DNA of 64,000 nt, taken from an uncultured Gammaproteobacteria bacterium. GTDB taxonomy: Bacteria; Patescibacteriota; Patescibacteriia; UBA11705. The notes under the pieces are model-generated. The model searched no databases and was not told the DNA's origin. It saw only the letters and a list, made by a program, of their open reading frames with translations. Numbering within the stretch: the stretch's first letter is position 1; every line of letters begins with the position of its first letter. The stretch is from NCBI GenBank assembly GCA_964592195.1, contig CAZQEI010000003.1, positions 20,174 through 84,173 on the forward strand, given 5' to 3'. A program made the translations under genes and the position numbers. Below are positions 36,573 through 64,000 of the stretch, one piece after another.

Positions 36573-36584
36573 ATTTTTTTATTT

Positions 36585-38889: not shown

Positions 38890-38896
38890 AAATATT

Positions 38897-39868
38897 TTAA
38901 TATCTATTGACCACCAATTTTATATTATGGCTATCACATGTCAACATATCTGTTTTCTCAAAAACAGAAAGAATCTTTTCATAATGTCCCAAAGTTCTAT
39001 TTTCACGAAGATATAGACAAGCGGCTTTTTGAGTACCTGATGGACCCTCTCTCCTACTTGTTCTGGTTAATATAGTTCCCAATTTCATTTTATCTCCCAG
39101 CAGTACCGCGTCATAAACCACCTCATTCAAAGTGGGTAAAAAATCTTGAATAACAGGCACATTCAAAAAATTTGATTGCCATAAAAATCCCGGGGTCTTA
39201 AAATACTCTTTCGTATCTTCAAAAGACGCCTTAACCTCTCTGGCGGGTACATACTTTGAGAACTGATCTCGAAACCAATCCATTAAATCAGGATAATTCG
39301 TTTTGTCTACAGTATCAATATATTGTCCATAGGGGCCACAAAGTGCCCAACCAAGACGAACAGCCTCATTTACTCCACTAGAACGGACATAATCTACCAT
39401 ATCATTAATATTTGCGCCGGTGCCTACTTTGAATCTACTAATCCAGACCAAACACAATTTATTTATATCTAACCATTTACGATCTGGTGTAATGTCCCAA
39501 CGTAAAATTAAACTGAGTCCTTGTTTTTTGGCCTTCATTAATTCCTTCTCTGAAAAATTTATAGTCGGTATCTGATCCACAGGCACATCAAAACCAAAAA
39601 CTTTTCTAATAGCTTCAGTTCCATAAAAGTTTTCTTCTCCCATAATATCTCGAGCATCATCCATCTCCACAGCACCTACAAATGGCGCTTCATCATCGAA
39701 ACTATCCAACCCTTCCAATTGTTTTAACATAAACTTCACCTGTTCCGGTGACGGTGGTTTACCATTGTTGCTCTTCACAATTTCATGCAACCGACTCGAT
39801 ACTTCCGCGTAGGTGTGAGCTACGGGTGAATTGTCGGGTAAAGTTAAGTTTTGGATATTTTCTGGCAT
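38897..39868 (-). CDS. family-A paralog 2
   Basis: same N-module; body shares FGF(D/E)(V/I)P...IP(T/P)I(N/P)FSE.EL..AK, GWALCGPY blocks with paralog 3. Confidence 0.75.
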   Translation of the reverse strand: MPENIQNLTLPDNSPVAHTYAEVSSRLHEIVKSNNGKPPSPEQVKFMLKQLEGLDSFDDEAPFVGAVEMDDARDIMGEENFYGTEAIRKVFGFDVPVDQIPTINFSEKELMKAKKQGLSLILRWDITPDRKWLDINKLCLVWISRFKVGTGANINDMVDYVRSSGVNEAVRLGWALCGPYGQYIDTVDKTNYPDLMDWFRDQFSKYVPAREVKASFEDTKEYFKTPGFLWQSNFLNVPVIQDFLPTLNEVVYDAVLLGDKMKLGTILTRTSRREGPSGTQKAACLYLRENRTLGHYEKILSVFEKTDMLTCDSHNIKLVVNRY

Positions 39869-39876
39869 GTGTTTTA

Positions 39877-40848
39877 TTAGTTACAATATCTATTAATCAC
39901 CATCTTTACATTATGACTGCCACAAGAAAGCATATTCGATTCATTGAAGACTGATAGTCTCATTGTTACGTTACCCGAATTTCTTTGTTCACGAATATTA
40001 AGGCAGGATATCTGTTGAACACTTCCCAAATCGCTATGACTATTTGTCCTAGTTAAAAAAGTTCTTCTGCTCATAAATGGTCCCAGTAATACAGCGTCAT
40101 AAAGAACTTCAGACAAACTAGGAAGGAAATTATTTAGTATTGGCAAACTTATTAGGTCAGCTTTATGCGTATAACCAGGGTGTTGATCTAAAAATTGATT
40201 AGCAGCTACACGCGCTTTATATATATCCGTTTGTGGAACAAAAACATTAATTTTCTCATTAAACCAATCCAGTAATGCCGGGAAGGAACTAAAATCACTC
40301 ATATCAATACTATCTACATATGGGCCGCAGAGCGCCCAGCCAGTGCGCGGGGCTCTTTCACTTAGTGCCACTGCAGAACTGCTCATTAATTGGATGTCTG
40401 TTTTAACCGGAAATCTCGTTTTCCAAACCGCTTGCAATCTATCAATATCTAAAGCCTCTCCCTCTGGTATTTCTCCCACACGTAAAATCAAACTAAACCC
40501 CAACTCTTTTGCATATATTAATTCCTGTTCTGAAAAATTTATCGCTGGGATATTTTTTTTGGGAATATCACTTTTGAATGCATATTTAATTTCTTTTGGT
40601 CCTAAAAAATGACCTTCACCCATAATCTCTAGAGCACGTCCCATTGTTACATTGCCAATAACCTCTTTACCCATATTGTTAATAGGCAACCGCCCCAACT
40701 GCGCCAACATTTCTTTCACCTGCTCCGCTGACGGTGGTTTACCATTGTTGCTTTTAACAATTTCATGCAATCGACTCGAAACTTCCGCGTAGGTGTGAGC
40801 TACGGGTAAATCAGTTGGTAAGGTTAATTTTGAGATATTTTCCGGCAT
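39877..40848 (-). CDS. family-A paralog 3
   Basis: same N-module. Confidence 0.75.
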   Translation of the reverse strand: MPENISKLTLPTDLPVAHTYAEVSSRLHEIVKSNNGKPPSAEQVKEMLAQLGRLPINNMGKEVIGNVTMGRALEIMGEGHFLGPKEIKYAFKSDIPKKNIPAINFSEQELIYAKELGFSLILRVGEIPEGEALDIDRLQAVWKTRFPVKTDIQLMSSSAVALSERAPRTGWALCGPYVDSIDMSDFSSFPALLDWFNEKINVFVPQTDIYKARVAANQFLDQHPGYTHKADLISLPILNNFLPSLSEVLYDAVLLGPFMSRRTFLTRTNSHSDLGSVQQISCLNIREQRNSGNVTMRLSVFNESNMLSCGSHNVKMVINRYCN

Positions 40849-40854
40849 ATTGAG

Positions 40855-41820
40855 CTACACTCTGACGTTACCAAATTTATTAATTGATAAAAATACTTTA
40901 TGCATAGAAAAACTATCTAAAGAAGGTAAAATATCATAATTTAACACCCTAGGTTGTGTTAACTGTTGAGAATTATCGTCTTTAAAGTCACAAACATAAG
41001 GATAAACAGTTGTTCCCATTGTTTTATTGAAAAAGAATGAACTGGTCATCAAATTATTAGAAGTTTTTCTAGATGCCGGCAACACCGCTTTATCATATAT
41101 AACTTCAACAAGTCTAGGCACAAATCTTCTAAGAACAGGATAGTCCATAATCAAAGGTCCATTTTCTTGTGTAAACAACTGGTTGCTAACATCCAAATCA
41201 AATTTTTCCAGTTCCTCAAGTTTAAGATCACCTAACATCTCAACAAACCATTTATAAAACTCGCGATTATTATCAGTATCAGGGACAGGAATTGGTTCTC
41301 CGCACAAAGCCCAACCACGCCGAGGAGTTGCAACATAATTATATTTATCTTGAAGACTGCTAATCAAATCATCGACTTGGTATTGAGAAGTTAGAAAGCG
41401 AAAAAGATAACGTAAGTTGATAAAACTCATTGATCCATCAGACTGAGTCGCTATATCCCACCTTAAAATTAAATACTGGCCCTTCTCCTTTGCCAATCGC
41501 AATTCTTCCGTAGAAAACGGGATGGGAGGAATTTGGTCATTTGATATTTCAATTCCTAAAGTCTTTTTAATCTCAGCCGGACCGAAAAAATTTTCATTCC
41601 CAATTACCTCTCGAGCCAGTCTCAAACTCATTTCTTTTTCACTATCTCCCGTAGAGGTCAAACGCTCCAATTGTTTTAACATAAACTTCACCTGTTCCGG
41701 TGACGGTGGTTTACCATTATTTCCCTTAACAATATCATGCAAGAGACTCGAAACTTCCGCGTAGGTGTGAGCTACGGGTGAATTGTCAGGTAAAGTTAAA
41801 TATGATTCACTTCTTGGCAT
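40855..41820 (-). CDS. family-A paralog 4
   Basis: N-module MPRSESYLTLPDNSPVAHTYAEVSSLLHDIVKGNNGKPPSPEQVKFMLKQLERL. Confidence 0.75.
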   Translation of the reverse strand: MPRSESYLTLPDNSPVAHTYAEVSSLLHDIVKGNNGKPPSPEQVKFMLKQLERLTSTGDSEKEMSLRLAREVIGNENFFGPAEIKKTLGIEISNDQIPPIPFSTEELRLAKEKGQYLILRWDIATQSDGSMSFINLRYLFRFLTSQYQVDDLISSLQDKYNYVATPRRGWALCGEPIPVPDTDNNREFYKWFVEMLGDLKLEELEKFDLDVSNQLFTQENGPLIMDYPVLRRFVPRLVEVIYDKAVLPASRKTSNNLMTSSFFFNKTMGTTVYPYVCDFKDDNSQQLTQPRVLNYDILPSLDSFSMHKVFLSINKFGNVRV

Positions 41821-41821
41821 A

Positions 41822-47263: not shown

Positions 47264-47267
47264 ATTA

Positions 47268-48260: not shown

Positions 48261-49835
48261 CTATTTCTTTGGCGTTGGTAGCTGTATTTGTTTAATGGAA
48301 ATTTTTCCTTTGATACAATCGAGATAAAAATATTTTCCTTTTGAATAAACCACCTTCCAATTTCCAACACTTGGCTGATCACTACGTTTACCATCTATCC
48401 ACAAAAAATTATCATCTACACAACTCCAAAAAACATGTTCCCCCGACGCACAGAACTTTGAGACTTCACCTTTTGGCATTTCAACTTTTACATTATCAAT
48501 ATATAAATAGTTGACCCGATCACTTTTCGGAGTACCCACATCTTCACTAACATAAAACAATGATCCTTTATGACCCAGAACTTCTATTGGTTTTTCTGTA
48601 GAGTAAACTCCGTTAAAATCACCAACAATACGAGTATCATCAACATTAAAACGAACCTCGGAAAAACCGTCACCACAGATGATGTAATCCAAAGTACCAC
48701 CCAAGTGATGTTGCGAAACCATAACCAATCTGCCATTGGATATACTTTTTTTTAATATCAGAGTATCCGGAGGATTCAGTCTTTCTATGTGATGACTACC
48801 TTTGACAAATTTATAAACATCTTGGTAAGCAACTCTACTGCTTTTCTTTCTACTATTTAAAATAAAATAAAGATTATCACCATTTGTAATTATTTCACCA
48901 ATGGTTAAGATATTTCCATCATGTCGATCATGTATCTGTGTCTCAATTAAATTATTCCCTCCAGTTAAATCATTAACAAACACATCATATAATTGTTTTG
49001 AAGGACTAAAAATTGACTGGAGACAACATAAATTCCCATCATAAGTAAAAGGCAAACTAAAATCATCCAATTTCGAATCAGATTCTATCTCGTTATTACC
49101 CAATACCAATTTTCGTCCTTTGTCTTTGCGATTATTACTGACATAAGCCAATCGCCCGTCAACCATTCCGACTTTTTCATATTGTTGTTGATTCTTAGTT
49201 AATAAACTTCCGTCTAAGTCAAGCACCATACCAACATCAATATCTCTATACTTGCCTAAAAAAGCTTTTAACTCATTATTTTCATCGGTCACTGGATTCA
49301 TCGTACCGCTCGGCGTATCGGATAAATTCTCATCCCCAATATGCTTCCCCTCCGCATCAACAATATCACCTCTTAATTGTTGACCTTTATCCAGATATTT
49401 AAAATAAAAGCAGGGACGACCGTTATATATAATCGGTTGACGTTCAACCACTCGTTGATTCCTATCACAAGGAAACTCATTTAAACGTTTTCCATCAATA
49501 TTAATTAACCCCGAAGATTTGCCATCTCTGGTAATCAAATCAAAAAACACTTCATCGTTAACCACAATAAGATCATCAGTCAAATTGGCTGTTTTGAATT
49601 CAGTGCCAGTCAAATCAATGGTGGCTTCATGAATAAATCTGGGCTCAGGAATTATCTCTTCCGTCATCCCTTCCACCTCCCTCAGCAACTCCGTGACAAA
49701 TCTCGGATTACGGGCGCTAAGTCCGGCGGCTTTTCTTTTAGCCACTAATTCGCGCAAACGTTCAGAACGTTCAGCGTAGTTTAATATTTGATCTTTATCT
49801 GTTGAATCCAATGTTAGGCTTAAATACTCACCCAT
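48261..49835 (-). CDS. family-B paralog 1 (N-module + WG-like beta repeats + conserved C-terminus)
   Basis: MGEYLSLTLDSTDKDQILNYAERSERLRELVAKRKAAGLSARNPRFVTELLREVEGM ... LWIDGKRSD..WKVVYSKGKYF. Confidence 0.8.
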   Translation of the reverse strand: MGEYLSLTLDSTDKDQILNYAERSERLRELVAKRKAAGLSARNPRFVTELLREVEGMTEEIIPEPRFIHEATIDLTGTEFKTANLTDDLIVVNDEVFFDLITRDGKSSGLINIDGKRLNEFPCDRNQRVVERQPIIYNGRPCFYFKYLDKGQQLRGDIVDAEGKHIGDENLSDTPSGTMNPVTDENNELKAFLGKYRDIDVGMVLDLDGSLLTKNQQQYEKVGMVDGRLAYVSNNRKDKGRKLVLGNNEIESDSKLDDFSLPFTYDGNLCCLQSIFSPSKQLYDVFVNDLTGGNNLIETQIHDRHDGNILTIGEIITNGDNLYFILNSRKKSSRVAYQDVYKFVKGSHHIERLNPPDTLILKKSISNGRLVMVSQHHLGGTLDYIICGDGFSEVRFNVDDTRIVGDFNGVYSTEKPIEVLGHKGSLFYVSEDVGTPKSDRVNYLYIDNVKVEMPKGEVSKFCASGEHVFWSCVDDNFLWIDGKRSDQPSVGNWKVVYSKGKYFYLDCIKGKISIKQIQLPTPKK

Positions 49836-49837
49836 AT

Positions 49838-51412
49838 TTATATTAAATTTTTTATTTCTCTAATCGAAATCTTTTTGTCTTTGTGACTAATATGAAAATA
49901 TTTTTCTCGTGAATACACCACTTTCCAATCTGCCGGGTAACACGGGAAATCAGTTTTCTTGCCGTCAATCCAAAGGACTCTATTCTCTTTATCCGAGTCA
50001 TCGTCCCAGAAAAAATGTCCATTTACAACATTAAAATTATTAACAATACAGTTTGGAACTTCCACCTTTTCATTATCAATGTATAAATAATTCATACCTC
50101 CGTCCTCTCTTCTTATCATCTCCAAACTCATATAAAATAATGTACCAGTATGTCCCAAAATTTCCACCGGTTTTTCCGTAGAAAAACAGCCGGAGTGGGA
50201 TCCTAACAATTCATCCTGATTTATTTTTACGGGAAATTTGCCTTCCATTCCAATTACATAATCCCAACCTTCCATGGCCATGGATGGTTGTTCGCCGATA
50301 GTTGTAATTCTACCTCCGGATAAAAACATTTTTGCGATTGCATTTTGCTTTACAATTTCCTGCATTATACCATTTGAAAATTTTAGAACAGAATACGCGC
50401 CATCGTCGGTATTTTTATCACTAATATACGCCAAACAGTAAATATTCTCACCATTCACAATAACATTTTCAATTCTTGAAACTTGACCGCCATTGATCCG
50501 ATCTTTAACTTCTCCCACAGTCAGACATTTACTGGTAACCATATCCATCAAAGCAAACTGATGATTATCTGATGATCCATCATAGTGCGAATATATTGCG
50601 TAAACATTGTCACCAACAACAAAAGGCAAGCTGTAATTATCATCCTCATCTACATATTCAATTTTATGCGACCCCCAACAAACTCTTCGACCTCTGTCCT
50701 TTGCCACATACGCCAATTCATCTTTAACTACTGACGCTTTTTCAAAAAAGGCTTCCTTGGTTAAATTTTCACCCTTTAAATCCACAATTCTTTGTATCAT
50801 ACTTTCTCCATCTGACAACAGTCTAGTCTTCACAAAATAACGCAACTCGCCGTTTTCATCCAAGACAGCATCAAAACTATGACTACCTGATTCATCAATA
50901 ATTTTATTCCCACCCGCATGTTCACCGACCGATGTAACAAATTCACCAATTTCATCATCTTCTGTTATTTTATAAAGCAACTTAAAACATGGTTTACCTT
51001 GGTATAAGATGGGTTCATTTTGATTCAGATGAAAACTGGAAGTACAAGGCCTGGGGTTAACAAATTTTTTATCTAATGTCATCACGTCAACCGACTTGCC
51101 GTTTTTAGCATGAACTGTCACAAAAATTTCATCGTTTTGAAAGATTACATCTTGGCCAACCGAGGTTATATATGAATCAATTTCATTCAAATCAATCTCC
51201 GCTTCATGAATAAACATTGATTCATCCAATGTTTCAATCGCCATCCCTTCTACCTCACGCAACAAATCTGCTACATACCTCGGATCATGGGCGCTAAGAC
51301 CGGTGGCTTTTCTGCTTGCCACCAACTCACGCAAACGTTCTGAACGTGCGGCGTAGTTTAAAGTTTGGTCTTTATCTGATGGATCTATAGTTAGACTTAA
51401 ATGCTCTCCCAT
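49838..51412 (-). CDS. family-B paralog 2
   Basis: same N- and C-terminal blocks; 2-nt spacer to neighbour. Confidence 0.8.
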   Translation of the reverse strand: MGEHLSLTIDPSDKDQTLNYAARSERLRELVASRKATGLSAHDPRYVADLLREVEGMAIETLDESMFIHEAEIDLNEIDSYITSVGQDVIFQNDEIFVTVHAKNGKSVDVMTLDKKFVNPRPCTSSFHLNQNEPILYQGKPCFKLLYKITEDDEIGEFVTSVGEHAGGNKIIDESGSHSFDAVLDENGELRYFVKTRLLSDGESMIQRIVDLKGENLTKEAFFEKASVVKDELAYVAKDRGRRVCWGSHKIEYVDEDDNYSLPFVVGDNVYAIYSHYDGSSDNHQFALMDMVTSKCLTVGEVKDRINGGQVSRIENVIVNGENIYCLAYISDKNTDDGAYSVLKFSNGIMQEIVKQNAIAKMFLSGGRITTIGEQPSMAMEGWDYVIGMEGKFPVKINQDELLGSHSGCFSTEKPVEILGHTGTLFYMSLEMIRREDGGMNYLYIDNEKVEVPNCIVNNFNVVNGHFFWDDDSDKENRVLWIDGKKTDFPCYPADWKVVYSREKYFHISHKDKKISIREIKNLI

Positions 51413-51414
51413 AG

Positions 51415-52974
51415 TTATATTAAATTTTTTATTTCTCTAATCGAAATCTTTTTATCTTGATTATTAATGAGAAAATATTTGCCGCGAGAATATACCACCT
51501 TCCAACTTCCAAATTGACACGGTAAATTAGTTTTCTTGCCATCAATCCACAAAGTTCTATTGCCATCATTATCAAGATTATCCCAAAATAAATGATTCCG
51601 CACAACCCTAAATGCCCGGACTTCACAATCAATCATTTCAATCTTATTGTTATCCACATATAAATAATTCACAGAATCACCTTCAACGTTAGTTTCTTCT
51701 GTCATATAGAATAAAGTCCCAGTCTGACCGAATATTTCAATCGGTTGGTCTGTAACAAAAATACCATCTTTCCCATTTAAAATATCTTTATCCTGATTTA
51801 AAGACGCAGTTTCTCCATCTTCTAATTCAATGATTATCATATCGTCTTCATCAATGTGTTGTTCTCGGACTGTTACCAATTTACTTCCAGTTAATGCAAT
51901 TTTTTGTAAAACCCCACCTCCGGTAATTATTTCCATCTTCCCATTCCCAATTTTACAAACAACACAATCAGTTTCACCAAGATTATCGCTATTTAGAACA
52001 CAATAAACTGCGTTACCACAGATTAATACATTTTCAATGGAAATATCATCATCTTCATTCGTACCAGGCAAAATTTCACTACCCGTAGTTTGACCTGTTA
52101 CAATGTCTTTAACACACAAGACATAATGTTCATTTCTTGGATCAAACATTGATTGAATTACGCATATTTGCCCATTAAAATCAAAAGGCAAACTAAAATC
52201 ATCTTTTTCGTGCTGTGATTGAATTTCATTTTTACCCCAAATTATCCGCTTGCGTGATTTATTTGGTAATTTCAATTCATATGCTAACTCGCCTCGAACA
52301 TAGGCAACCCTAGAATATGGAACTATCCCCTCTGGTGAAATTTTGTTTCCATTTAAATCTAAAATCTCTTTCATATCATGTAAACCACCAGCGTTCCGAA
52401 CTCGCATAAAGGCCTTCAATTCCATATTCTCATCCACCACTTCAGTCAACTGGTCTGAGGATGCGAAGACTCCCTGATTAATCGATTTTCCTTGCGAATT
52501 TACAAATTCAATTACTGAATGATCAGACATATCACGATGTTTCATTCTGAAAAATGGAGTTTTATTTACGTAACCACAAAATTCGATTGAGCCCGATATA
52601 CATGGGACATTATTAAGATGAATTCCCTCAATATTTAACAAATGCTCAAACTGGGGGGTGCCGTATTTTTTTACTTTAAAAAATACTTCATCACCAGCTA
52701 CAATCACATCGTTGGAAACACTTGACAATTGAAGATCATTTTCACTCAAATCAATCACCGCTTCATGAATAAACATTGATTCATCCACCGATTCAATCGC
52801 CATCCCTTCTACCTCACGCAACAAATCCGCCACAAATCGCGGATCGCGGGCGCTAAGACCGGCGGCTTTTCTGCTTGCCACTAACTCACGCAAACGTTCT
52901 GAACGTACGGCGTAGTTTAAAGTTTGATCTTTGTCCTTCGGGTCAAGGGTTAATTTTTGTTCGCCAATAGGCAT
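51415..52974 (-). CDS. family-B paralog 3
   Basis: MPIGEQKLTLDPKDKDQTLNYAVRSERLRELVASRKAAGLSARDPRFVADLLREVEGM. Confidence 0.8.
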   Translation of the reverse strand: MPIGEQKLTLDPKDKDQTLNYAVRSERLRELVASRKAAGLSARDPRFVADLLREVEGMAIESVDESMFIHEAVIDLSENDLQLSSVSNDVIVAGDEVFFKVKKYGTPQFEHLLNIEGIHLNNVPCISGSIEFCGYVNKTPFFRMKHRDMSDHSVIEFVNSQGKSINQGVFASSDQLTEVVDENMELKAFMRVRNAGGLHDMKEILDLNGNKISPEGIVPYSRVAYVRGELAYELKLPNKSRKRIIWGKNEIQSQHEKDDFSLPFDFNGQICVIQSMFDPRNEHYVLCVKDIVTGQTTGSEILPGTNEDDDISIENVLICGNAVYCVLNSDNLGETDCVVCKIGNGKMEIITGGGVLQKIALTGSKLVTVREQHIDEDDMIIIELEDGETASLNQDKDILNGKDGIFVTDQPIEIFGQTGTLFYMTEETNVEGDSVNYLYVDNNKIEMIDCEVRAFRVVRNHLFWDNLDNDGNRTLWIDGKKTNLPCQFGSWKVVYSRGKYFLINNQDKKISIREIKNLI

Positions 52975-52976
52975 AC

Positions 52977-54530
52977 TTATATTTTGATTTCACGCACAAT
53001 TAATTTTTGATCTTTCAATCCTAGCATAAAACATTTACCGCCATGAGATACGACTTTCAAAATTTTTTCCGCTGAATATTGCGTTTGTTTACCATCCACC
53101 CAGAGATACGAATCCCCGTCAACAATAGTTCTCGGTCCTGTTGTTCTGGTTTTAGTATATGACCAAAAAACGTGATCTTCAATAACATCAAAATTATCAT
53201 AATTCCCCACAGGTAAATCACTCGATTGATTATCTATCCATAATTTCGGACATTCGCTACCATGGGCATTACTGAGAAAGAATATTTCTCCGGTTTTACC
53301 TTCAATGGTAATAGGTTTATTGGTGTTTTTAATATAACCAGAATCTCCACCACCACCACGGATATGAGTCGTCGCATTTTGTGTTACACCTTCAATATAC
53401 ACTTCAGATTCTTTTTGATTTTCAACATGACTTAAAACCACTAACCGATTATTAAGCAAAAAGAAATCCTCAATTTCTGCGTCTTTAGAACATGGAACAT
53501 CGACTGGTGTAATCTGTTGCCCATCAAATTTAAATAATTTCACAATCCAATCACTATCTTTGTTCACCGAAGCCGTGAAGTATACCGCCTTTTCACCGGC
53601 AATAACTTTCACTATTCGAAAAACATTCCCATCCTCAACATTAATACCGATACCAATATCTCTATCTTGCTGGTCTATAGCCCAAATATAACTTGAGTAC
53701 ATTACCGCATTTGGATCAGAATCATCATTGTCATTATTAGCTTCAATAAATAAAATCTGGTTATTAAAACGAAATGGCATACTGACATTACCTTCCTTTG
53801 TTATATGATTGCCCTTTCTATCCACAAAACCAGAAACACTTTCTCCAGCCCACCTATCACCCCGGTAATACAAAACACCAGATTCATATGAACAATTACA
53901 ATCTTCTAGAAAATCACTTTCAAACCTCCCTGCCATATCCAGCAACCGATAGTTACCACTAACACTTTCATCCTGATCTGGAAAATATTGTCTCACATAA
54001 CCAATCTCGCCAGACTCATCAACTATTACGTTGGGATTATTTTCAAATTTACGAATATCCAAGGAAATTTGTTCTCCTTTTTTATTTAAAAACTTCAATG
54101 CGCCACTGTCCGCATCAGTCAAAGGGAAAATCAATTCGCCTTTATATAAAAAGGTTGAAATAAAAGAACGCGCCGCTGGAAAATCATTTATTGGTTTTCC
54201 TTCAATATCTAAAATTGATTCCTTTTGGTCCTCATTTTTCACCCGCAAAAACAGCTCTCCCTGATTAAAAATTATACACTCGCCGGCTGGACTAAAACCA
54301 TCCAACGGAATATCGACTGAATGAATATATTTTTTATCAAACACCAGCCCATCAGCCATCCCATTCACCTCCCTCAACAAATCCACCACATACCTAGGAT
54401 CATGAGCACTAAGACCAGCGGCTTTATTCCGCGCCACCAATTCGCGCAAACGTTCTGAACGTTCAGCGAAGTTTAAAGTTTGATCTTTGTCATTTGGATC
54501 GAGGGTTAATTTTCGTTCACCAATGGGCAT
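52977..54530 (-). CDS. family-B paralog 4
   Basis: same module. Confidence 0.8.
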   Translation of the reverse strand: MPIGERKLTLDPNDKDQTLNFAERSERLRELVARNKAAGLSAHDPRYVVDLLREVNGMADGLVFDKKYIHSVDIPLDGFSPAGECIIFNQGELFLRVKNEDQKESILDIEGKPINDFPAARSFISTFLYKGELIFPLTDADSGALKFLNKKGEQISLDIRKFENNPNVIVDESGEIGYVRQYFPDQDESVSGNYRLLDMAGRFESDFLEDCNCSYESGVLYYRGDRWAGESVSGFVDRKGNHITKEGNVSMPFRFNNQILFIEANNDNDDSDPNAVMYSSYIWAIDQQDRDIGIGINVEDGNVFRIVKVIAGEKAVYFTASVNKDSDWIVKLFKFDGQQITPVDVPCSKDAEIEDFFLLNNRLVVLSHVENQKESEVYIEGVTQNATTHIRGGGGDSGYIKNTNKPITIEGKTGEIFFLSNAHGSECPKLWIDNQSSDLPVGNYDNFDVIEDHVFWSYTKTRTTGPRTIVDGDSYLWVDGKQTQYSAEKILKVVSHGGKCFMLGLKDQKLIVREIKI

Positions 54531-54532
54531 AA

Positions 54533-56098
54533 TTATATTTTAATTTCACGAACAATTATTTTTGCATACCCTTTATTTTTTTCTTTACCAATAAAATAGT
54601 ATTTATCATTTACAAAAACCACTTTCAAAATATCATTCGACTGATATTGCGTCGGCTGACCATCGATCCATAGAGACGACACCCTATGTTTCCCGGGATT
54701 TAATTTTTTATTTTCAGCTTTGGGAATTTTATGCGCCCAAAACATATGGTCATTGACACTAGCCGAATAAGTAATTTCACCTGCTGGAAAATCTTGCGGC
54801 TCACCATCGACCCACAAAGTTATTTTTTCTCCATCAACGGTCAAAAAAAACACTTTACCGGTATGCCCCATCACAGTTCTTTCATCTTCAAAAGCAAATA
54901 TTTCTCCACATGGTTTATCTGTGGGACTGCCGAGTTTAACTTTTCCTAAATTGTGTAAATAGTAAAAAAATCCTTTACCAGGAAGATACCCGGTATAGAC
55001 CACTTGCCCATTAACCATCCTAAAATCCACAAAATCACTATTCCTGGGAATTTTACGATTTTTTTCATTTAGAATTTCAATATGTGTACCGTCAAAATGA
55101 AACAATAAAACACCATTTTGTGAACTATTTCTCCAACCTTTAGTTTTAATAGTAAAACACACATCCTTGCCATTCACAATAACATTTGAAGGCACAGCGA
55201 CTTCTGAAACATGAAAATTAAAATACGTAAAATTTATATTTCCAAAATTTTCGATCGATACCTTTGAATTTTCAACTTGAATACAAAAATGTTCACCTGA
55301 CTTTCCATACTTAAATGGAATACTTACATTTTCACCTCGTACGTTTTGTTTTTCCCCTCTACCAAGTACATTATAACCAGCCTCATCCTTACCTTTTTTG
55401 TACTGTCCACTCCAAGTCAAAGTATTATCCTTTTCCATTACAAAAGTATAATCAGTCAACCACTCTGTTATAGGCTCCTTGTTCAAATTTATTGCACGGG
55501 CTGTCAACTGCGCATCACCATTGACTGTTTGTTCCAATAAAGCACATAGATTGCCATCATCATCAGTCATTAATTCATATCTTTTATAATCAGAAGCTTC
55601 ACCTTTAAACAATATTTCCTCACCATTCAAATTTACAAATCTAGATGGATTCTCATCTGAAGCGTGAAAAACATCAAACTTTACTCCAAGCTGACCATTC
55701 AATTTAAACGTTTCTATAGGGAAATCGGGCAAAGGTTCTTTATTTATCATCTCGCCTGACAAGCGGCAAACATCCATGCCTTGTTTATCTTGTCTTGGAA
55801 GAGTGAACAAAACTTGATCACCAATCAAATGCACATCGCTTGATTTTACTTTGTTTAATTTATATCCAGGTAATTCCAAATCTTTTTCACAAAGTTCATT
55901 TTTATCCGGCGCCAATTCGACCGCCATGCCTTCAACTTCTTTTAACAAATCCACCACATATCTCGGATCATGGGCGCTAAGTCCGGCGGCTTTTCTTTTG
56001 GCCACCAATTCGCGCAAACGTTCTGAACGCTCGGCGTAATTTAAAGCTTTATCTTTGTCGTTCGGGTCAAGGGTTAATTTTTGTTCATTGAAAGGCAT
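54533..56098 (-). CDS. family-B paralog 5
   Basis: same module. Confidence 0.8.
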   Translation of the reverse strand: MPFNEQKLTLDPNDKDKALNYAERSERLRELVAKRKAAGLSAHDPRYVVDLLKEVEGMAVELAPDKNELCEKDLELPGYKLNKVKSSDVHLIGDQVLFTLPRQDKQGMDVCRLSGEMINKEPLPDFPIETFKLNGQLGVKFDVFHASDENPSRFVNLNGEEILFKGEASDYKRYELMTDDDGNLCALLEQTVNGDAQLTARAINLNKEPITEWLTDYTFVMEKDNTLTWSGQYKKGKDEAGYNVLGRGEKQNVRGENVSIPFKYGKSGEHFCIQVENSKVSIENFGNINFTYFNFHVSEVAVPSNVIVNGKDVCFTIKTKGWRNSSQNGVLLFHFDGTHIEILNEKNRKIPRNSDFVDFRMVNGQVVYTGYLPGKGFFYYLHNLGKVKLGSPTDKPCGEIFAFEDERTVMGHTGKVFFLTVDGEKITLWVDGEPQDFPAGEITYSASVNDHMFWAHKIPKAENKKLNPGKHRVSSLWIDGQPTQYQSNDILKVVFVNDKYYFIGKEKNKGYAKIIVREIKI

Positions 56099-56101
56099 AA
56101 A

Positions 56102-57661
56102 TTAAACTACTATTTCTTTTATCACTAATTTCGTACCCACCAAACCAATCATGAAATATTTATTTTCCGTATAAATAAACTTTAAAATTTTATCAGCACA
56201 ATACTTGGTTTTCTGACCATCGAGCCAAACATACTCTGTTTTATCTTGTACTTTCTTTTTATCAGGCTCTTTCTCAATAAATTCCCGAAAGCCCCAGAAT
56301 AAATGATCCTTGAGGACTATTTTGTTAGAGAAGACACCGAAAGGCAACACCACAGATTGATTTTCTATCCAAAATTGATAATCACCTTCATCTTTATGAC
56401 TACCAAAGAAAAATACTTCACCGGTTTTGCCCAAAACATTCACCGGTTTAGAAGTTTTCAAAATATTCTCTTCACTTTGATCCAGATCAAGCCCGGCTTT
56501 AAAGACTTCAAAAGGTTCAGGCAAACCATCTATATGAATATATTCTTTGTCAGTATCAATTGAAAGGTAATGAACCATCAAACGATTATTCACCATGGTA
56601 AACCCATTCATCACGCAGTTTTCCGGTCCAGTCACTTCCTTAATAGTTTGTCCATCAAATTTAAATAACTTCTCTCCTTGCTCCAATGAATCAGGCATAT
56701 GAATAGTGGCGGTAAAATATCCGACATCATTTCCTGCAACCACTTTTTTTATATTAATAACATTTGATCGCTCTAATCCCAACCATGGTGTGCCAATTTC
56801 TTTACCGGCATCATTGACTAAAGATAATTTCGCCACTTTGGCTTTTGATTTCTTTCGGTATTTTTCTTTCGCTTCTATAAAACAAAACTTACCATTATAT
56901 TTAAATGGTAGACTAACCATCCCCTCCATAAACGCCCTCTCTCCATCATGAGAAATATAGCCGCAAATATTATCTCGATTATATTCTCCTTGATAAGTAA
57001 TATAGCCTGGCTCCACTTGATACTGGAACTGCTCTATAAAAGCCGTCAATTCTTCATTATTCAAATCATTTATAGTACTAAAACTAAAACCATCTTCATC
57101 ATCTACATGATCGACGACAAAATAACGTAAGTCACCATTTTCATCTGCCAACGGATCAATAATTTGCGACCTTGAGAATTTATCGAACTCAATCTGTTTG
57201 CCTTGTGAATTTATATACTTAACGTCACCATCGTTTCGGCTACGAACTTTAAAACATGTTTGTCCCCCCCAACGAAAGGGTTTGGCAGAAACATCTGAAC
57301 ATTGAAACTTTACAATGCCCTCATTATCAATATTAACAATATCCTCTGATCCAATATTATGTCTAACTTTAATAAATAATTCTCCATTTAATAACCCGAT
57401 ATCCTCCCCCAAGATTCTTTGAGCAGTAAAATCGTTAATCTCAATTTCTGTTTCAAAAACTTTTGGTTCTTTGGGCTCCAAATCTTTATTCAACCCTTCC
57501 ACTTCCCGCAACAAATCTGCCACATAATTTGGATCACGAGCGCTAAGACCAGCGGCTTTTCTTTTGGCCACCAATTCACGCAAACGTTCTGAACGTTCAG
57601 CGTAATTTAATCCTTGCTCTTTATCTGCCGGATCAAGAGTTAATTGTATTTTTTCACCCAT
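56102..57661 (-). CDS. family-B paralog 6
   Basis: ORF 56102..57670; family-consistent start is MGEKIQLTLDP (57661), 1 nt after upstream stop. Confidence 0.8.
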   Translation of the reverse strand: MGEKIQLTLDPADKEQGLNYAERSERLRELVAKRKAAGLSARDPNYVADLLREVEGLNKDLEPKEPKVFETEIEINDFTAQRILGEDIGLLNGELFIKVRHNIGSEDIVNIDNEGIVKFQCSDVSAKPFRWGGQTCFKVRSRNDGDVKYINSQGKQIEFDKFSRSQIIDPLADENGDLRYFVVDHVDDEDGFSFSTINDLNNEELTAFIEQFQYQVEPGYITYQGEYNRDNICGYISHDGERAFMEGMVSLPFKYNGKFCFIEAKEKYRKKSKAKVAKLSLVNDAGKEIGTPWLGLERSNVINIKKVVAGNDVGYFTATIHMPDSLEQGEKLFKFDGQTIKEVTGPENCVMNGFTMVNNRLMVHYLSIDTDKEYIHIDGLPEPFEVFKAGLDLDQSEENILKTSKPVNVLGKTGEVFFFGSHKDEGDYQFWIENQSVVLPFGVFSNKIVLKDHLFWGFREFIEKEPDKKKVQDKTEYVWLDGQKTKYCADKILKFIYTENKYFMIGLVGTKLVIKEIVV

Positions 57662-57662
57662 A

Positions 57663-59234
57663 TTAAACATCCAATGCTTTGACTATTAATTTATTATAAA
57701 GCACCGCCACCACAAAATATTTATTATTTGAATAAACCACTTTTAATATTTTATCATATTTTCCTTTCATTTGCTTGCCATCCATATACAATTTTTCACC
57801 GCCAAAATCCAACTGGTCATTCCAAAACAGATGATCATTTACCACGCAAAACATATTGCAAGTCAAAGCGCTATCTTTCTCCAGATCAATCGGAGAGTTA
57901 TCAACAAACAGTGTTTCTCTATTTTCCAGATTCCTCGCCATATAGAAAATTGATCCTTGCTGGCCAAAAATTTCAATTGGTTTGCTGGTAGTATAGATTT
58001 GATGAAACTCAACCATGCCAACTGGAGCATGTTCGCCAACAATGGCGTTCACTGTTTGTTCGCCCAGGCCATCAATTACAATTTTTCGTTTCCTTTTACC
58101 ATCCACATGAACATACGCAACCACCGATAACCGACCTCCGATTTCATGCAAATTCATTGAACGTGCTTCTGTTATTCGAGTAGGTTCAAATTTACCAAAT
58201 TTAAACATGTAAGCATTCGGATACCCAGGATCACCCAACGAATCCCTACACACCACTTTCACTAAACACTTATCTCCCGAGGCGACCACCTGACTGATAG
58301 AACTGATCTCATCATGTAAAGGCTGAGCCAGAGTAACAGCTTCTTTGGTTTGAATATCTCTTATAACTATTTGGTCTGCCCCATCAATACTCTTGTGGCA
58401 ACAAACGCAAACCTTACCATTAAACAGAAAAGGTGCGCTTAACTTCTGTTCATTATGTGTTTCTATTCTATCATCACCCCAAACAGCTGATTGACCATCA
58501 GTAAAATTTAAACCATTATTCGCCAAATATGCCCACTTTCCTTCTAACACAACGGAATTACGAAGTTCTATTTCTTCGTTCGTCACAGCCTCACCATTCA
58601 AGTTGAAAATTTGTCCGGATTGATTACCAATCTCATTAATCGTTTTTACTTTATTAAAACCTAAAATATCTTTGTCATTTTCCAGCACCTCCTCGATAAA
58701 GTCACCGGCGCCGGCCTTTAAATTTTCATCTCCGATAAATTCTCCATGATGGTTGATAAAAGCATCAATCATTTCACCTTCTGAATCATAATAACGCAAT
58801 TTGAAACATATTTTCCCCTGATAAAAAATCGGTTTATCTATACCAGTAATACCGTAATTTTTTAATGCGGGATGGGGGTTTATTGGTTTGCCGTCAATAT
58901 TTAATAAATGAGCAGATTCGCCATCTTTAGATTGGACACGAACAAACAGTTCGTCTTGTTGACAAAATACGCTGTTAATATTTAGTTCCGCTTGATTGTA
59001 TTCGCTTAAATCAAAACTCGTTTCATGCACCAGCTCCAATAGGTTAATCGAAGAAATATTCATAGCCGCCACTTCTCGTAATAAAGAAGCAACGTAAGCC
59101 GGATCCTTTGCATCCAAGCCAGAAGCCTTTCTTTCTTTTACCAACTCACGCAAACGTTCAGAACGATCAGCATAATTCAAAGACTGTTCTTTATTGTTTG
59201 GATCGAGGGTTAATTTTCGTTCTGTAAAAGGCAT
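57663..59234 (-). CDS. family-B paralog 7
   Basis: same module. Confidence 0.8.
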   Translation of the reverse strand: MPFTERKLTLDPNNKEQSLNYADRSERLRELVKERKASGLDAKDPAYVASLLREVAAMNISSINLLELVHETSFDLSEYNQAELNINSVFCQQDELFVRVQSKDGESAHLLNIDGKPINPHPALKNYGITGIDKPIFYQGKICFKLRYYDSEGEMIDAFINHHGEFIGDENLKAGAGDFIEEVLENDKDILGFNKVKTINEIGNQSGQIFNLNGEAVTNEEIELRNSVVLEGKWAYLANNGLNFTDGQSAVWGDDRIETHNEQKLSAPFLFNGKVCVCCHKSIDGADQIVIRDIQTKEAVTLAQPLHDEISSISQVVASGDKCLVKVVCRDSLGDPGYPNAYMFKFGKFEPTRITEARSMNLHEIGGRLSVVAYVHVDGKRKRKIVIDGLGEQTVNAIVGEHAPVGMVEFHQIYTTSKPIEIFGQQGSIFYMARNLENRETLFVDNSPIDLEKDSALTCNMFCVVNDHLFWNDQLDFGGEKLYMDGKQMKGKYDKILKVVYSNNKYFVVAVLYNKLIVKALDV

Positions 59235-59236
59235 AG

Positions 59237-60802
59237 TTAAAAAGTAATTTCACGCACCACTAACTGTTCACCCTCTCTCGCAACCACATAATAAATCCCA
59301 TTTTCTTCCACCACTTTCAGAATATAATCAAACTCATATTTCGATTTCACGCCGTCAATATATAAAGATGTTCTACTTCTTGTTCTGTCATCAATCCAAC
59401 TGGACTGACCATGAAACAATACATCATTAACAATATCAAAATAGGTAAAGTGTGGACCTCTCTTAGTCTCTCCCAAGGAAACTTTTTCATTATCAATCAC
59501 TAAGAACGGTTCAAAGCGACCTTCGTCAATGTAAAATACTTGCCCTGTTTTTCCCAAGACAGTTTTTGGTTTTTGGGTGCTTAAAATTTTACTCAACGCC
59601 AATTTCTCACTTCTAATCGGTGTCCCCATGCCGATGGAAACAGAGTATCCCACCACAGTATTTTTACCATTGCGTTCCTGTCTTAATTCCTTTGTTTGGA
59701 TTAATTTACCAGCCGTAACTTGAATATCAGCTAATATTGTATCCTTATTATCAGGAATAACTGATATAGTGTCGGTAAGAACATCCGCAACAGTGATAGC
59801 TCTCCGACCATTTAAATCAGACGCAATCATATATATTTTCGAATCGACCACGCTAATTGAATTGACATCCTTAAGTCTATAAGCATTAATACACTTGGCT
59901 AAAGTTTCTTTGGTAACTAAATCAATAATCTCAAAAGTCCCGCCTTTATCAAAATCATAGTGCCACTTTGCCACCACCACTTTATCTTGGACAACAAACG
60001 GATGACTCATGTTGCCTGCTTTTAATTCCTGATTTGACAGGGAAATTTTATTATCTCCCCAGACTGCTACTTTTTCTGGAGATCCACTTTGGGTATAACC
60101 CGTATAAGCTAATTGATCTTTTATCACTTCCCATTTTTCCAAGGCTAAAAATTCTGTAGTTATTGGTCGATGATTCAAATCATAAATTTTTCCCACGCGA
60201 TGCGAGCTATCAATCTCCGTAGCCTCGCCTAAATATCGCAGTTCGTTTTTCTCATCCAATACAGGTAATAAAATCATTTTATCACTACCTTTGGATGGCA
60301 AACCAAGGCTTTCACCATTTTCATCGACAATTTCCTCTAGAACTTCACCCTGCTTATTTTCATATTTGAACCGAAAAGCAATCTTACCATTGTAAAAAAA
60401 CGGCTTTTTGAATCTCGGATCATAGCTAGTATTTAAATGTTGTTTATTTACCACTTTTCGATCAATGTCAATCAGATCAACCACACTATGTCGACCATTC
60501 GGATGCAAGCCGAAAAATAACTTCCCGCCAACCAGATGGGCATCATAGTCCCGTAAGTCATAAGGACTATAGCCGTCGAGATCAATCGTTGCTTCTCGAA
60601 TGAACTGAGGTTTTTCCGCTTCAGTTCCGCTGAAATTTTCCAATTCATGAAGCACCTCTGCCACATGTCTCGGATCGCGGGCACTAAGACCGGCGGCTTT
60701 CTGTCTAGCCACCATGTCACGCAACCGCTCAGACATCTCAGCGTAATTGAGTGAACGCTGTGTGTCTCGAGGATCAATGGTTAAATTTATATTTTCTCCC
60801 AT
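59237..60802 (-). CDS. family-B paralog 8
   Basis: MGENINLTIDPRDTQRSLNYAEMSERLRDMVARQKAAGLSARDPRHV. Confidence 0.8.
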   Translation of the reverse strand: MGENINLTIDPRDTQRSLNYAEMSERLRDMVARQKAAGLSARDPRHVAEVLHELENFSGTEAEKPQFIREATIDLDGYSPYDLRDYDAHLVGGKLFFGLHPNGRHSVVDLIDIDRKVVNKQHLNTSYDPRFKKPFFYNGKIAFRFKYENKQGEVLEEIVDENGESLGLPSKGSDKMILLPVLDEKNELRYLGEATEIDSSHRVGKIYDLNHRPITTEFLALEKWEVIKDQLAYTGYTQSGSPEKVAVWGDNKISLSNQELKAGNMSHPFVVQDKVVVAKWHYDFDKGGTFEIIDLVTKETLAKCINAYRLKDVNSISVVDSKIYMIASDLNGRRAITVADVLTDTISVIPDNKDTILADIQVTAGKLIQTKELRQERNGKNTVVGYSVSIGMGTPIRSEKLALSKILSTQKPKTVLGKTGQVFYIDEGRFEPFLVIDNEKVSLGETKRGPHFTYFDIVNDVLFHGQSSWIDDRTRSRTSLYIDGVKSKYEFDYILKVVEENGIYYVVAREGEQLVVREITF

Positions 60803-60835
60803 ATTTAATCAATTGAAATATCTCCGCCTAAGGCG

Positions 60836-60872
60836 CCTGCCTGCCGGCAGGCAGGGATCAGCCTCCGGCTGA
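60836..60872. repeat. composite GC palindrome CCTGCCTGCCGGCAGGCAGG + GATCAGCCTCCGGCTGA
   Basis: only >10-nt spacer inside the family-B array; same modules at 29586-29612, 25352-25398, 3737-3768. Confidence 0.7.
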
Positions 60873-62351
60873 AAATGTGCCGAAATATCCGTTTCTTTTA
60901 CCCAACATTAAATATTTCCCATCTTGAAAAACCACACTTTTTATATCATCGCAAAAATACTGAGTTCTCACACCATCCACATACAAATAGCAATCTTTTT
61001 CACCATTCAAAGTCTCACCCCAGATTACGTGGTTATTTAGCGTTAAGAAAAAAGAAACTTCCCCATCCGGCAATAACCGAGGTTCATTATCCACCCACAA
61101 AGTATTTTTCGATTCATTATTGGTTAAATAAAATATTTGACCGGTAGCACCTAAAACAGTAATTGGATTATCCACAGAATAAATACACTCATCCCCAATA
61201 AAATTTCTAGCTGCCATCCGAGACTTCCCTCCAATGCTGACTTTAGCTGTATCCCTATCAGGACCAAACCAATCTTGTTGAACCACCACTAATTTACCCG
61301 CCACGACATCAAAGTAATCAATGCTTGACTCGCTACATTCAAAATCCAACTTGGAAATATTACTACCATCATAACAATATATCATTGGCTGATCACCACG
61401 ACCATCAGCGCCAGCTCCTGCCCAAATATAAATTTTGTCACCATACACAACCGTCTTTCTAATTTCAGTTATTTTTGGTAACTGTAACGCGATATTATCA
61501 CTCAAAACTTTCTCAGATCGCATGTTAACCAAAGCAATCCCAGTGGCATTATTATCTGGGTTAAAAAAACTACGACAAACCACGGGTTGACTTTGATAAT
61601 AAAAGGGTAAACCAAATTTATAATATTTAACATCAGCCGTCACTTGAGAGTTTCCTAATCGCGCCACCCACAATTCTCCCCAGACACCATGATAAGCCAG
61701 GACTCCATCCACCAACTTGGCTTCTTTCACCATATCAACCGTACTTGAAGCTAGTTGCCCATCCAACTCCAAGACTTCCCCCGCATAGCCACCACCATTT
61801 GGTTGAACATCATTTTTAAAGACATATTTTATTACGCCATTTTCATCTTTTAAAAAATCCAAGAATCGATATCTTTCATCTGATTTTACCTCAGGTAATA
61901 TTTTATCACCGTTTTCATCAATCAAATAGCTACCACTTTTCCCACCAGCGACCACGCTATAACACACATGAAAATCATGCAAACCTACTGTTTCAAACGG
62001 TAATATACTATTTTCTTTGTTCAGTCTTTTTCCCTCAGCATCTAATAAAACATAGGATTTATCCACAAAACTTCTCCCAGAGATGAATAATTTACCCGCA
62101 ACAACCTTGGCTTTATTAAAAACAAAACCATCACTTTCAATTATATTTTTCATGGCTGGTCCTTGGGGAATTAAATAGTCCAATTTGGAAACCTCGTCCA
62201 ACAATTTTTTCACATATGCCGGATTATTTCGCCCTTTACCCTTATTTTCCGCCACTATTTCACGTAAACGCTCAGAAGTATCAACAAAACTTCCAGGTTC
62301 TTTTTCATCCTTCTTATCAAACGTTAAATTAAATTTTACACCTTCTCCCAT
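60858..62351 (-). CDS. family-B paralog 9 (divergent N-module)
   Basis: MGEGVKFNLTFDKKDEK...TSERLREIVAENKGKG; C-terminus LYVDGVRTQYFCDDIKSVVFQDGKY. Confidence 0.75.
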   Translation of the reverse strand: MGEGVKFNLTFDKKDEKEPGSFVDTSERLREIVAENKGKGRNNPAYVKKLLDEVSKLDYLIPQGPAMKNIIESDGFVFNKAKVVAGKLFISGRSFVDKSYVLLDAEGKRLNKENSILPFETVGLHDFHVCYSVVAGGKSGSYLIDENGDKILPEVKSDERYRFLDFLKDENGVIKYVFKNDVQPNGGGYAGEVLELDGQLASSTVDMVKEAKLVDGVLAYHGVWGELWVARLGNSQVTADVKYYKFGLPFYYQSQPVVCRSFFNPDNNATGIALVNMRSEKVLSDNIALQLPKITEIRKTVVYGDKIYIWAGAGADGRGDQPMIYCYDGSNISKLDFECSESSIDYFDVVAGKLVVVQQDWFGPDRDTAKVSIGGKSRMAARNFIGDECIYSVDNPITVLGATGQIFYLTNNESKNTLWVDNEPRLLPDGEVSFFLTLNNHVIWGETLNGEKDCYLYVDGVRTQYFCDDIKSVVFQDGKYLMLGKRNGYFGTFSAGG

Positions 62352-62356
62352 ATTAT

Positions 62357-63976
62357 TTATATTTTAATCTCACGCACGACCATATCCGTGCCATTTACTG
62401 CCACCACAAAATATTTACCTTCGTGAAAGACCACTTTGAGGATTTTATCATACACATATATAGATGGCGTTCCGTCTATCACCAAACGCGACTCTTCCTT
62501 TCTAAATTTGCCACTTCCCACTACTTTGTAATGATTCCAAAACAACACATCATTGGCAATATCAAACATCGTTATCTGTCCATTAAGCACTACATCACCT
62601 AACAAAATCGGGTCATCATCAACCATCAACCATACATTCCCCATATCAATACCAATATGAAATATTTGCCCCACCGACCCAAGCACTTCCTTGGGTTTAT
62701 CGGTGGCAAGAACTTTTGCTCCAATAATTTTATCAGACTGAAGTTCTGTCTTCCCGTCAATTTGGACACCATATCTGGGAGGTAAACCGCCATCCCGAGA
62801 ATACCGAATAAAATAGACCATCTCTCCGGCAATTTTTTGAATATCGGAAACCTCAGTCTTCTCATCTTTTAACATCAAATGATGACTTTTTTGGCCTTCG
62901 ATTATCAATACCATTTTTTGTCCATCTCTGGTCACATGTACATATACCTTATCATCCACTACTTCATATTTATGAATTTCCGTAATGGAAGATTTCTCAC
63001 TGTCATTGTCATGCAATACTTCACTGGTTTCAATATCTATTACTTGGGTATTCCCCATGTCAAAACTTTGATCAAAACCGGTTCTAATAAAACATTTTCT
63101 GCCGTTCCACAAAAAGACGCCACTGAAAACCAGTTGATCTAATTTATTCAATTCATCGGATGATGAATATTTGTGCGAACCGCAAACTACCTGTATATTT
63201 CCAGCCGTATCTTCCGATAGATAACTAAGTTGACCATCAACTATACGTGAAAAGGTGATATGCTGGTTACTATCAGTTACTGGGTTACCGTCAGGAGTAA
63301 ATAACTGACCATAATCTTTTCCGCCTTCAGAAACTAACGAGGTCCCGCAACAAACCAAATTTCTTTTATCATCGAGAACTTTCAATAGCACTTTAAAGTC
63401 ATCATTACTATTTGGCAATCCGACGTCTTTACCTTTTTCATTTACAAACAGACTAGCAACACCATCGTGTTTATCGACATAACCAAACTGAAAAATTAAT
63501 TGATTTTTATAATAAAATGGTCGCCTGCCAAATCCGAAGCCAACACTATGGCATGGATATTTATTAATACTCTCACCGGAAATGTTTTTTAGAGTATGTT
63601 CGTTCATGCCTGTATCACGCAAATCAAAAAACAGTTTTCCATCCATAAATTCAACGCAAGATTCATTGATACCACTGACCTCATAATCTGAAATATCAAA
63701 AGTTGAGTCTCGAATTATATTATCCTCTGCCCCAGATTCCAAACATTCAGCGGTTCGATTGACCAATAACAAAGCCAGACTAACATCTTCAGGCGTAAAT
63801 CTACCCTTGGATTTTATTTGCAGTGATAGCTCATGCAATTGCTCGAAGTTGTCAACTAAACTTCGTCCGGTTTCACGATCGCCTGCCATTAACTTTCCAG
63901 AGGCACTATTAAAACTACCGGCAGATTTTTGATCCTCGTTTCCTGATGCTAAATTAAACTGACCGCCTTCTCCCAT
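62357..63976 (-). CDS. family-B paralog 10 (most divergent N-terminus)
   Basis: MGEGGQFNL...; C-terminus LVIDGTPSIYVYDKILKVVFHEGKYFVVAVNGTDMVVREIKI. Confidence 0.75.
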   Translation of the reverse strand: MGEGGQFNLASGNEDQKSAGSFNSASGKLMAGDRETGRSLVDNFEQLHELSLQIKSKGRFTPEDVSLALLLVNRTAECLESGAEDNIIRDSTFDISDYEVSGINESCVEFMDGKLFFDLRDTGMNEHTLKNISGESINKYPCHSVGFGFGRRPFYYKNQLIFQFGYVDKHDGVASLFVNEKGKDVGLPNSNDDFKVLLKVLDDKRNLVCCGTSLVSEGGKDYGQLFTPDGNPVTDSNQHITFSRIVDGQLSYLSEDTAGNIQVVCGSHKYSSSDELNKLDQLVFSGVFLWNGRKCFIRTGFDQSFDMGNTQVIDIETSEVLHDNDSEKSSITEIHKYEVVDDKVYVHVTRDGQKMVLIIEGQKSHHLMLKDEKTEVSDIQKIAGEMVYFIRYSRDGGLPPRYGVQIDGKTELQSDKIIGAKVLATDKPKEVLGSVGQIFHIGIDMGNVWLMVDDDPILLGDVVLNGQITMFDIANDVLFWNHYKVVGSGKFRKEESRLVIDGTPSIYVYDKILKVVFHEGKYFVVAVNGTDMVVREIKI

Positions 63977-64000
63977 ATTTATTAAACTTTAATTTCCTTC

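Follow-up and report, generated by a model that had tools for sequence, protein, structure and literature searches.

The 64,000-nucleotide (nt) window analysed here, a stretch of contig CAZQEI010000003.1 from an uncultured bacterium, carries two tandem gene arrays, both on the minus strand. Family B (B1–B10, 48261..63976) consists of ten same-strand open reading frames (ORFs) of ~497–539 residues, delimited from the ORF list and the alignment, and family A (A1–A4, 37867..41820) of four tightly packed ORFs of 321–340 residues. In both families the 5′ end of the gene, here called the 5′ block, is conserved at the DNA level and the rest of the gene, the body, is strongly diverged. We find that conservation of the block is mainly purifying selection on an N-terminal protein module common to families with unrelated bodies. 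The 5′ block as a whole is probably explained by this protein-constrained module together with old, patchy short-tract gene conversion or recombination in A1–A4 and B1–B6. An earlier note on this DNA had read the pattern as nucleotide identity beyond what the protein requires, produced by recombination anchored in the block; that claim is partly right, but secondary. The locus falls under the pattern known from the lpl genes of Staphylococcus aureus, in a new phylum and a new protein family, and is not a cassette-switching system.

A 5′ block of ~190–240 nt is far better conserved than the remainder of the gene in B1–B10. In a codon alignment of B1–B8, sliding windows gave DNA identities of 0.70–0.78 over the first ~60–65 codons and of 0.33–0.54 in the body, which together with the family A block bears out the conserved-block, diverged-body pattern as first described. 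A repeat search recovered the block as a 243-nt unit present seven times in family B, at ~1.56 kb spacing and with 63–79% identity to the reference copy, and as a 162-nt unit present four times in family A with 78–86% identity. The first ~150 nt of paralogs 1–8 had been called nearly identical, which is wrong for family B: pairwise block DNA identity among B1–B8 ranges from 0.54 to 0.84 (mean 0.72–0.73; bodies 39–50%), and no two B blocks match exactly over more than 29 nt. The 68-mer quoted as the common B string matches only two copies at ≤3 mismatches. Both quoted strings, from A and from B, are nevertheless beyond chance, with 0 matches in shuffled sequence. The B repeat unit reaches ~30–60 nt upstream of the gene, into the 3′ end of the preceding one, and B2 and B3 have an exact 39 nt in common at their 3′ ends (49838–49876 and 51415–51453; …KISIREIKNLI*). 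Conservation of the DNA is thus not limited to the 5′ block but continues across the gene junction.

Amino-acid identity of the block in B1–B8 is 0.73, as high as the DNA identity, so that most of the signal is protein conservation. We expressed divergence as Nei–Gojobori proportions of nonsynonymous (pN) and synonymous (pS) differences. Among B1–B6 the block has a pN of 0.13 and a pS of 0.51, and the body a pN of 0.52 and a pS of 0.68, the latter saturated. B7 serves as an internal control. Compared with B1–B6, its block has a pN of 0.19–0.28, a pS of 0.74–0.92 and an amino-acid identity of 61–69%, and its identical codons number 90, against 89.7 expected from codon usage (excess 0.002). Block DNA identity of B7 is ~64% despite these random synonymous sites, and protein constraint alone thus holds the block at that level. 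A decomposition that places random synonymous codons at identical residues predicts 69.4% DNA identity for the B1–B6 block (observed 78.5%), 44.1% for the B1–B6 body (observed 44.6%) and 68.7% for the A1–A4 block (observed 79.3%). About three quarters of the rise in DNA identity over the bodies is protein constraint, and about one quarter is silent-site similarity.

The block encodes a hydrophilic N-terminal module of ~55–60 residues. AlphaFold models of B3 (predicted local distance difference test score, pLDDT, 81) and of A2 both show two helices joined by a short loop over residues ~15–58, which predicts a helix-loop-helix for the module. The two families had been treated as two separate cases of one pattern; their N-termini turn out to be homologous. 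The A and B N-termini align by hhalign with a probability of 94.8% (E = 5e-8). A hidden Markov model (HMM) built from family B only matches A1–A3 (E 6e-6 to 3e-4), with only a marginal match to A4 (E = 0.04); an HMM built from family A only matches the B copies, and the reciprocal matches always lie at the extreme N-terminus (residues 1 to ~60). The bodies behind the module differ: those of family B are many-bladed beta-propellers, those of family A comprise ~270 residues unrelated to the B bodies, and a further protein of 603 residues, P0013, has a module-only match and a third kind of body. On one contig, no fewer than 17 genes begin with the module (12 B copies, four A copies and P0013). 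That a single module recurs on bodies that are unrelated and diverge fast suggests a shared handle, a tag by which diversified cargo or binding domains would be docked, targeted or assembled.

Protein constraint leaves a silent-site component in a subset of the copies. We compared codons at columns where a residue is common to at least five of the six proteins B1–B6, leaving out pairs inside the closer B1–B3 trio. Identical codons make up 0.63 in the block (0.40 expected) and 0.51 in the body (0.50 expected), that is, an excess of 0.23 vs 0.01; the difference of 0.22 has a bootstrap confidence interval of 0.11–0.34 and a column-permutation p of 0.00025. In family A the identical-codon fraction is 0.82–0.85 in the first 35 codons and ~0.4 in the body. 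Synonymous excess is weak in B8 and absent from B7, B9 and B10. Silent sites are thus less diverged in the block than at conserved body codons in B1–B6 and A1–A4, whereas block and body show equal synonymous divergence in B7, B9 and B10. Identity beyond the needs of the protein, as the earlier note had it, accordingly stands strongly for A1–A4, moderately for B1–B6 and weakly for B8, and falls for the other three copies. General codon bias was ruled out as the source of the common codons: those in question include the rare CTT, AGC, GCC and CGT, and B7 is without excess. Synonymous divergence (dS) of the block is ~0.6–1.3 even in A1–A4 and B1–B6, which places the copies far from recent homogenisation. 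GC content at third codon positions (GC3) is 0.39–0.47 in the blocks of B1–B5, B8, A2 and A3 vs 0.26–0.33 in the bodies and is not raised in the blocks of B7, B9 and B10. The raised values are compatible with GC-biased gene conversion, although not decisive.

Site patterns within the block point to exchange between particular copies. A2 and A4 have an exact tract of 53 nt in common and 15 of 16 identical codons over columns 36–55, with bodies 44% identical; none of 2000 column permutations yielded so long a run (run test p < 0.0005), and the result is globally significant. The pattern A1A3|A2A4 accounts for 12 of 18 informative sites in the block vs 16 of 102 elsewhere (Fisher p = 2e-5). In family B, exact tracts of 26–29 nt join B4–B7, B3–B5, B1–B5 and B4–B5 (pairwise run test p ≤ 0.0005 to 0.0015). 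The body of B3 groups with B1 and B2 (34–38% amino-acid identity), and its first ~12 codons are the “MP...KLTLDP” haplotype of B5; for the quartet B1B2|B3B5 this grouping holds at 8/8 informative sites in the first 36 columns and at 0/9 in the remaining block. Short-tract exchange is well supported in family A and suggestive in family B, and in both families the events are old and do not amount to ongoing homogenisation. Concerted evolution or recombination in the 5′ block, as originally proposed, is upheld by the silent-site excess and the discordant tracts as a secondary, historical process, and not as the main cause.

Several points weigh against this account. The conversion-tract test, a GENECONV-type run test, is globally significant for A2–A4, but the B-pair results are nominal (p ≤ 0.0005 up to 0.04) and do not survive global correction. 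The pairwise homoplasy index (PHI) test for family B gives p = 0.03 at third positions and 0.36 at all positions, so that the evidence for conversion in B is modest. Paralog pairs are non-independent samples, and exchange is read from sequence patterns in one genome. B6 has the common codons, yet its GC3 is not raised, and a nucleotide-level constraint particular to B1–B6 and A1–A4 may exist. As for the module itself, the family A model is poor (A2 pLDDT 51 overall, ~70–78 in the module), Pfam, PDB sequences, PADLOC and PHROGs give no relative of the module, Pfam and the other collections give none of the bodies, and a signal peptide was looked for in the module proteins and not found.

On the reading we prefer, purifying selection keeps the coding sequence of the module similar, and the bodies have diverged to synonymous saturation. 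Neighbouring copies would now and then have exchanged short tracts, by interlocus gene conversion or unequal recombination, and so have produced the silent-site excess and the discordant tracts; such exchange would be limited to the sole stretch that protein constraint leaves similar enough for pairing. We infer that recombination, and not nucleotide-level selection, most likely lies behind the synonymous excess. An assembly artefact is held unlikely: the bodies are only 39–50% identical and the exact repeats are short. A bolder proposal, which we regard as tentative and on balance doubtful, is that the module is an undescribed Patescibacteria address or docking tag that routes or assembles a set of diversified, lineage-specific proteins (beta-propeller binders, family A and P0013) onto one partner or export route, and that its DNA is at the same time a recombination handle that recruits bodies and lets the arrays expand, contract and exchange heads.

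Protein constraint could instead be combined with a cis-acting RNA or DNA element in the block, such as a hairpin, a context for translational coupling or reinitiation, or a protein-binding site, without any recombination; the earlier note had offered a conserved RNA element as its own alternative. Genes that lie 2–3 nt apart and lack a clear Shine-Dalgarno sequence make coupling plausible. Hairpins can form in B1–B6 from the B core CGCTGAACGTT-CAG-AACGTTTGCG and from GGTGGC...GCCGCC (the B-core hairpins called by RNAalifold rest on AACGTT-CAG-AACGTT and GGTGGC...GCCGCC), and the rare codons are common to copies. Against such an element, the RNAalifold covariation term is ~0 (B −0.12 kcal/mol, A +0.19) with predicted pairs almost all invariant, single-copy folding z-scores range from −1.78 to +1.47 (nine copies vs shuffles), and Rfam gives 0 matches at E ≤ 1. 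B7 and B9 retain the protein module without the codons or the hairpins, and the family A sequence differs at the homologous position. A constant element would, moreover, not give pair-specific tracts or discordant site patterns. The RNA element is therefore unsupported and we consider this explanation unlikely; a small element specific to B1–B6 may be present.

Programmed cassette exchange or antigenic-variation-like switching, in which the 5′ block anchors the movement of bodies into an expressed position, had been suggested for these arrays and is very improbable. Tandem, very divergent bodies behind a common 5′ block, a cell-envelope gene neighbourhood, a probable episymbiont as host and the presence of some mosaic tracts would all suit it. 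Yet all 14 copies in the window (A and B) are intact, full-length ORFs of 321–539 residues, of similar length within the arrays, each with its own ATG and with operon-like spacing (most gaps 2–7 nt), and there is no truncated or promoterless cassette. Recombination drops steeply with sequence divergence (PMC2568036), and homology here is short and diverged: exact matches do not exceed 29 nt among the B blocks, which are 54–84% identical, family A offers no more than the one 53-nt exact tract, and block dS argues against recent exchange. The copies are all direct repeats, between which a crossover would delete genes and not switch them. No recombinase, invertase or reverse transcriptase Pfam domain was found in the ~50 window ORFs scanned, and the repeat search found no inverted repeats in the arrays; terminator-like sites in the arrays show no excess. 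A third alternative is that the copies arose by recent duplication, their bodies then diverging very fast under adaptation, and that the block shows their true young age. It would fit a body pN of ~0.52 and the fast diversification often seen in beta-propeller binding scaffolds, but it is rejected as very improbable on silent-site saturation at conserved body codons, where synonymous sites are at random expectation for pairs outside the B1–B3 trio (0.51 vs 0.50), so that the bodies are old at silent sites too and block and body differ in silent-site depth.

The closest described precedent is the lpl cluster of tandem paralogs on the S. aureus nuSa-alpha island, where a short in-ORF block conserved in DNA and protein is a recombination site (Tsuru & Kobayashi, 2008; PMC2568036). 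In lpl the block sits in the middle of the ORF, measures 132 nt and is 79–100% identical (mean 88%), exchange was demonstrated across more than 10 genomes, and the evolutionary unit runs from the 3′ end of a gene across the spacer into the 5′ end of its downstream neighbour (PMC2568036). Both loci are same-orientation tandem arrays with a conserved block in every ORF flanked by variable sequence; in both, phylogenies disagree on the two sides of the block and the unit spans the gene junction (here seen in the 39-nt 3′ end of B2 and B3). The present block, in contrast, is 5′ and not central, its identity in family B is 54–84%, one genome is considered here and many there, and the lipoprotein signal peptides of the lpl products have no counterpart.

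Other systems resemble parts of the locus. The mycobacterial PE and PPE proteins have a conserved N-terminal helical-hairpin domain before a variable C-terminal body and form large lineage-specific families for which recombination and gene conversion have been reported; the domains, of 110 and 180 residues, form pairs and have a YxxxD/E motif for export through the ESX system. The likeness to a conserved N-terminal helical domain plus variable body is a functional analogy; no sequence relationship, YxxxD/E motif or type VII genes were seen at this locus. In Campylobacter fetus sap and Mycoplasma vsp/vlp/vsa, a single promoter or expression site is accompanied by silent or invertible copies, the 5′ homology is near-identical over a hundred to several hundred bp, and there is often a dedicated recombinase or opposed gene orientations; the conserved 5′ segment of these paralogs is the recombination substrate (overview in PMC4534519). 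Multiple paralogs with a conserved 5′ segment followed by variable bodies are common to those systems and to this one, but the expression site with silent copies, the near-identical homology and the recombinase or opposed orientation are not present here. The Helicobacter pylori babA and babB genes have conserved ends and divergent middles, and interlocus gene conversion is limited to the conserved parts. The bab loci are, however, dispersed and not a tandem operon, their segments are nearly identical, and conversion has been seen experimentally.

All 5′ blocks lie on the minus strand. Those of B1 (49646..49835) and B2 (51223..51412) encode the N-terminal module with an MGE-type start, and those of B3 (52785..52974), B4 (54341..54530) and B5 (55909..56098) have an MP-type start; the first ~12 codons of B3 group with B5 and its body with B1 and B2, B4 has an exact tract of 26 nt in common with B7 and one of 29 nt with B5, and B5 has exact tracts of 26–28 nt in common with B3, B1 and B6. 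The B6 block occupies 57472..57661. Mechanical ORF calling places the B6 start at 57670, overlapping the end of B7, and an alternative ATG at 57661 (MGEK…) suits the family alignment better; the database protein for B6 (P0005, 519 residues) begins at this ATG, which is likely the true start. The B7 block (59045..59234) is the control with synonymous sites at random expectation, the B8 block (60613..60802) is more diverged with weak synonymous excess, the B9 block (62165..62351) encodes a diverged module without synonymous excess, and the B10 block (63700..63976) encodes the most diverged module, with an 18-residue insert. In family A the blocks of A1 (38728..38889), A2 (39707..39868), A3 (40687..40848) and A4 (41659..41820) encode the same N-terminal module; A2 and A4 hold the 53-nt identical tract.

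Intergenic gaps in family B are mostly 2–3 nt; B7 and B6 overlap or abut, and the B9–B8 gap is 55 nt. The array extends beyond the window end, where the 3′ end of P0009 (…KEIKV*) lies immediately upstream of the B10 start (window 63977–64000), and P0009, P0010 and P0013 are located on the same 126,086-bp NCBI contig as B1–B10. Family A lies between a Wzy_C-like gene (41822–43219) and a GT4 glycosyltransferase gene (36779–37870), the latter overlapping A1 by 4 nt, and the run from 36779 to 43219 (Wzy_C-like, A4, A3, A2, A1, GT4) is tight and operon-like. This position suggests a tie to surface-glycan synthesis. Short AT-rich tandem repeats at 36584–36759 (TCGTAATTCGTAA-like; 14-nt ATTCTT(G/A)ATTCTTA) lie within the spacer between two GT4 glycosyltransferase genes.

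Two further features lie between the arrays. At 43523–45904 (minus strand) a Cys-rich ORF of 793 residues has a lipoprotein-type signal (…LALAGC) and CxDxNxCT-like repeats (Pfam Dicty_CTDC); its GC content is 63% vs 37% for the genome, ORFs are open on both strands, and the stretch is probably either foreign in origin or odd in composition. Inverted repeats of 65–81 nt (≤94% complementary) at 46684–46861 and 47235–47428 flank a small PD-(D/E)XK (PDDEXK_3) gene at 46841–47263, and may together with the gene make up a small unit, mobile or regulatory.

At ~37% GC, the window derives from a bacterial chromosome, and its genes include hrcA-grpE-dnaK-dnaJ, mreB, murJ and an aminoacyl-tRNA synthetase. 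Its DnaK is ≤76% identical to the DnaK proteins of metagenome-assembled genomes (MAGs) of Candidatus Falkowbacteria, Kuenenbacteria and other Patescibacteria, and by these matches the organism is placed as an uncultured member of the Candidate Phyla Radiation.

In the searches run, relatives of the two families were confined almost entirely to this contig. Among 1.84 billion representative proteins, an exhaustive profile search picked up no family B member outside it, bar P0011, a fragment of 34 residues, and gave one marginal partial match (E = 2.6e-4) to P0012, an unrelated repeat protein. A word-indexed protein search found no relatives of family B beyond the same contig, a module-only profile search had P0011 as its sole match, and matches to family A were confined to the contig in the searches run. 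Genome and metagenome collections gave no related locus with protein patterns and a 29-nt DNA consensus. PDB matches to the module are designed helical proteins and reflect generic helix composition only. P0011 is identical to the B9 N-terminus (62250–62351) and lies on a 1,112-bp Logan contig; this identity indicates that another public sequencing run contains the organism or one closely related to it. The Logan contig may have been broken at the repeated block.

The locus gives no evidence for a new switching mechanism. What it offers genome evolution is a further case of the lpl-type rule, taken from a very different phylum: in tandem paralog arrays, recombination persists in the very stretch that protein constraint keeps similar. 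The orphan N-terminal module common to two expanded families is a more interesting fact than the nucleotide-level claim from which the analysis started. Patescibacteria have small genomes and are mostly episymbiotic, and their interaction with hosts is largely unknown. More than 25 kb of one contig is given over to at least 17 genes, none found elsewhere, that place a common short module before rapidly diverged bodies, which makes this a plausible locus for host-interaction or surface-remodelling proteins with a common handling mechanism.

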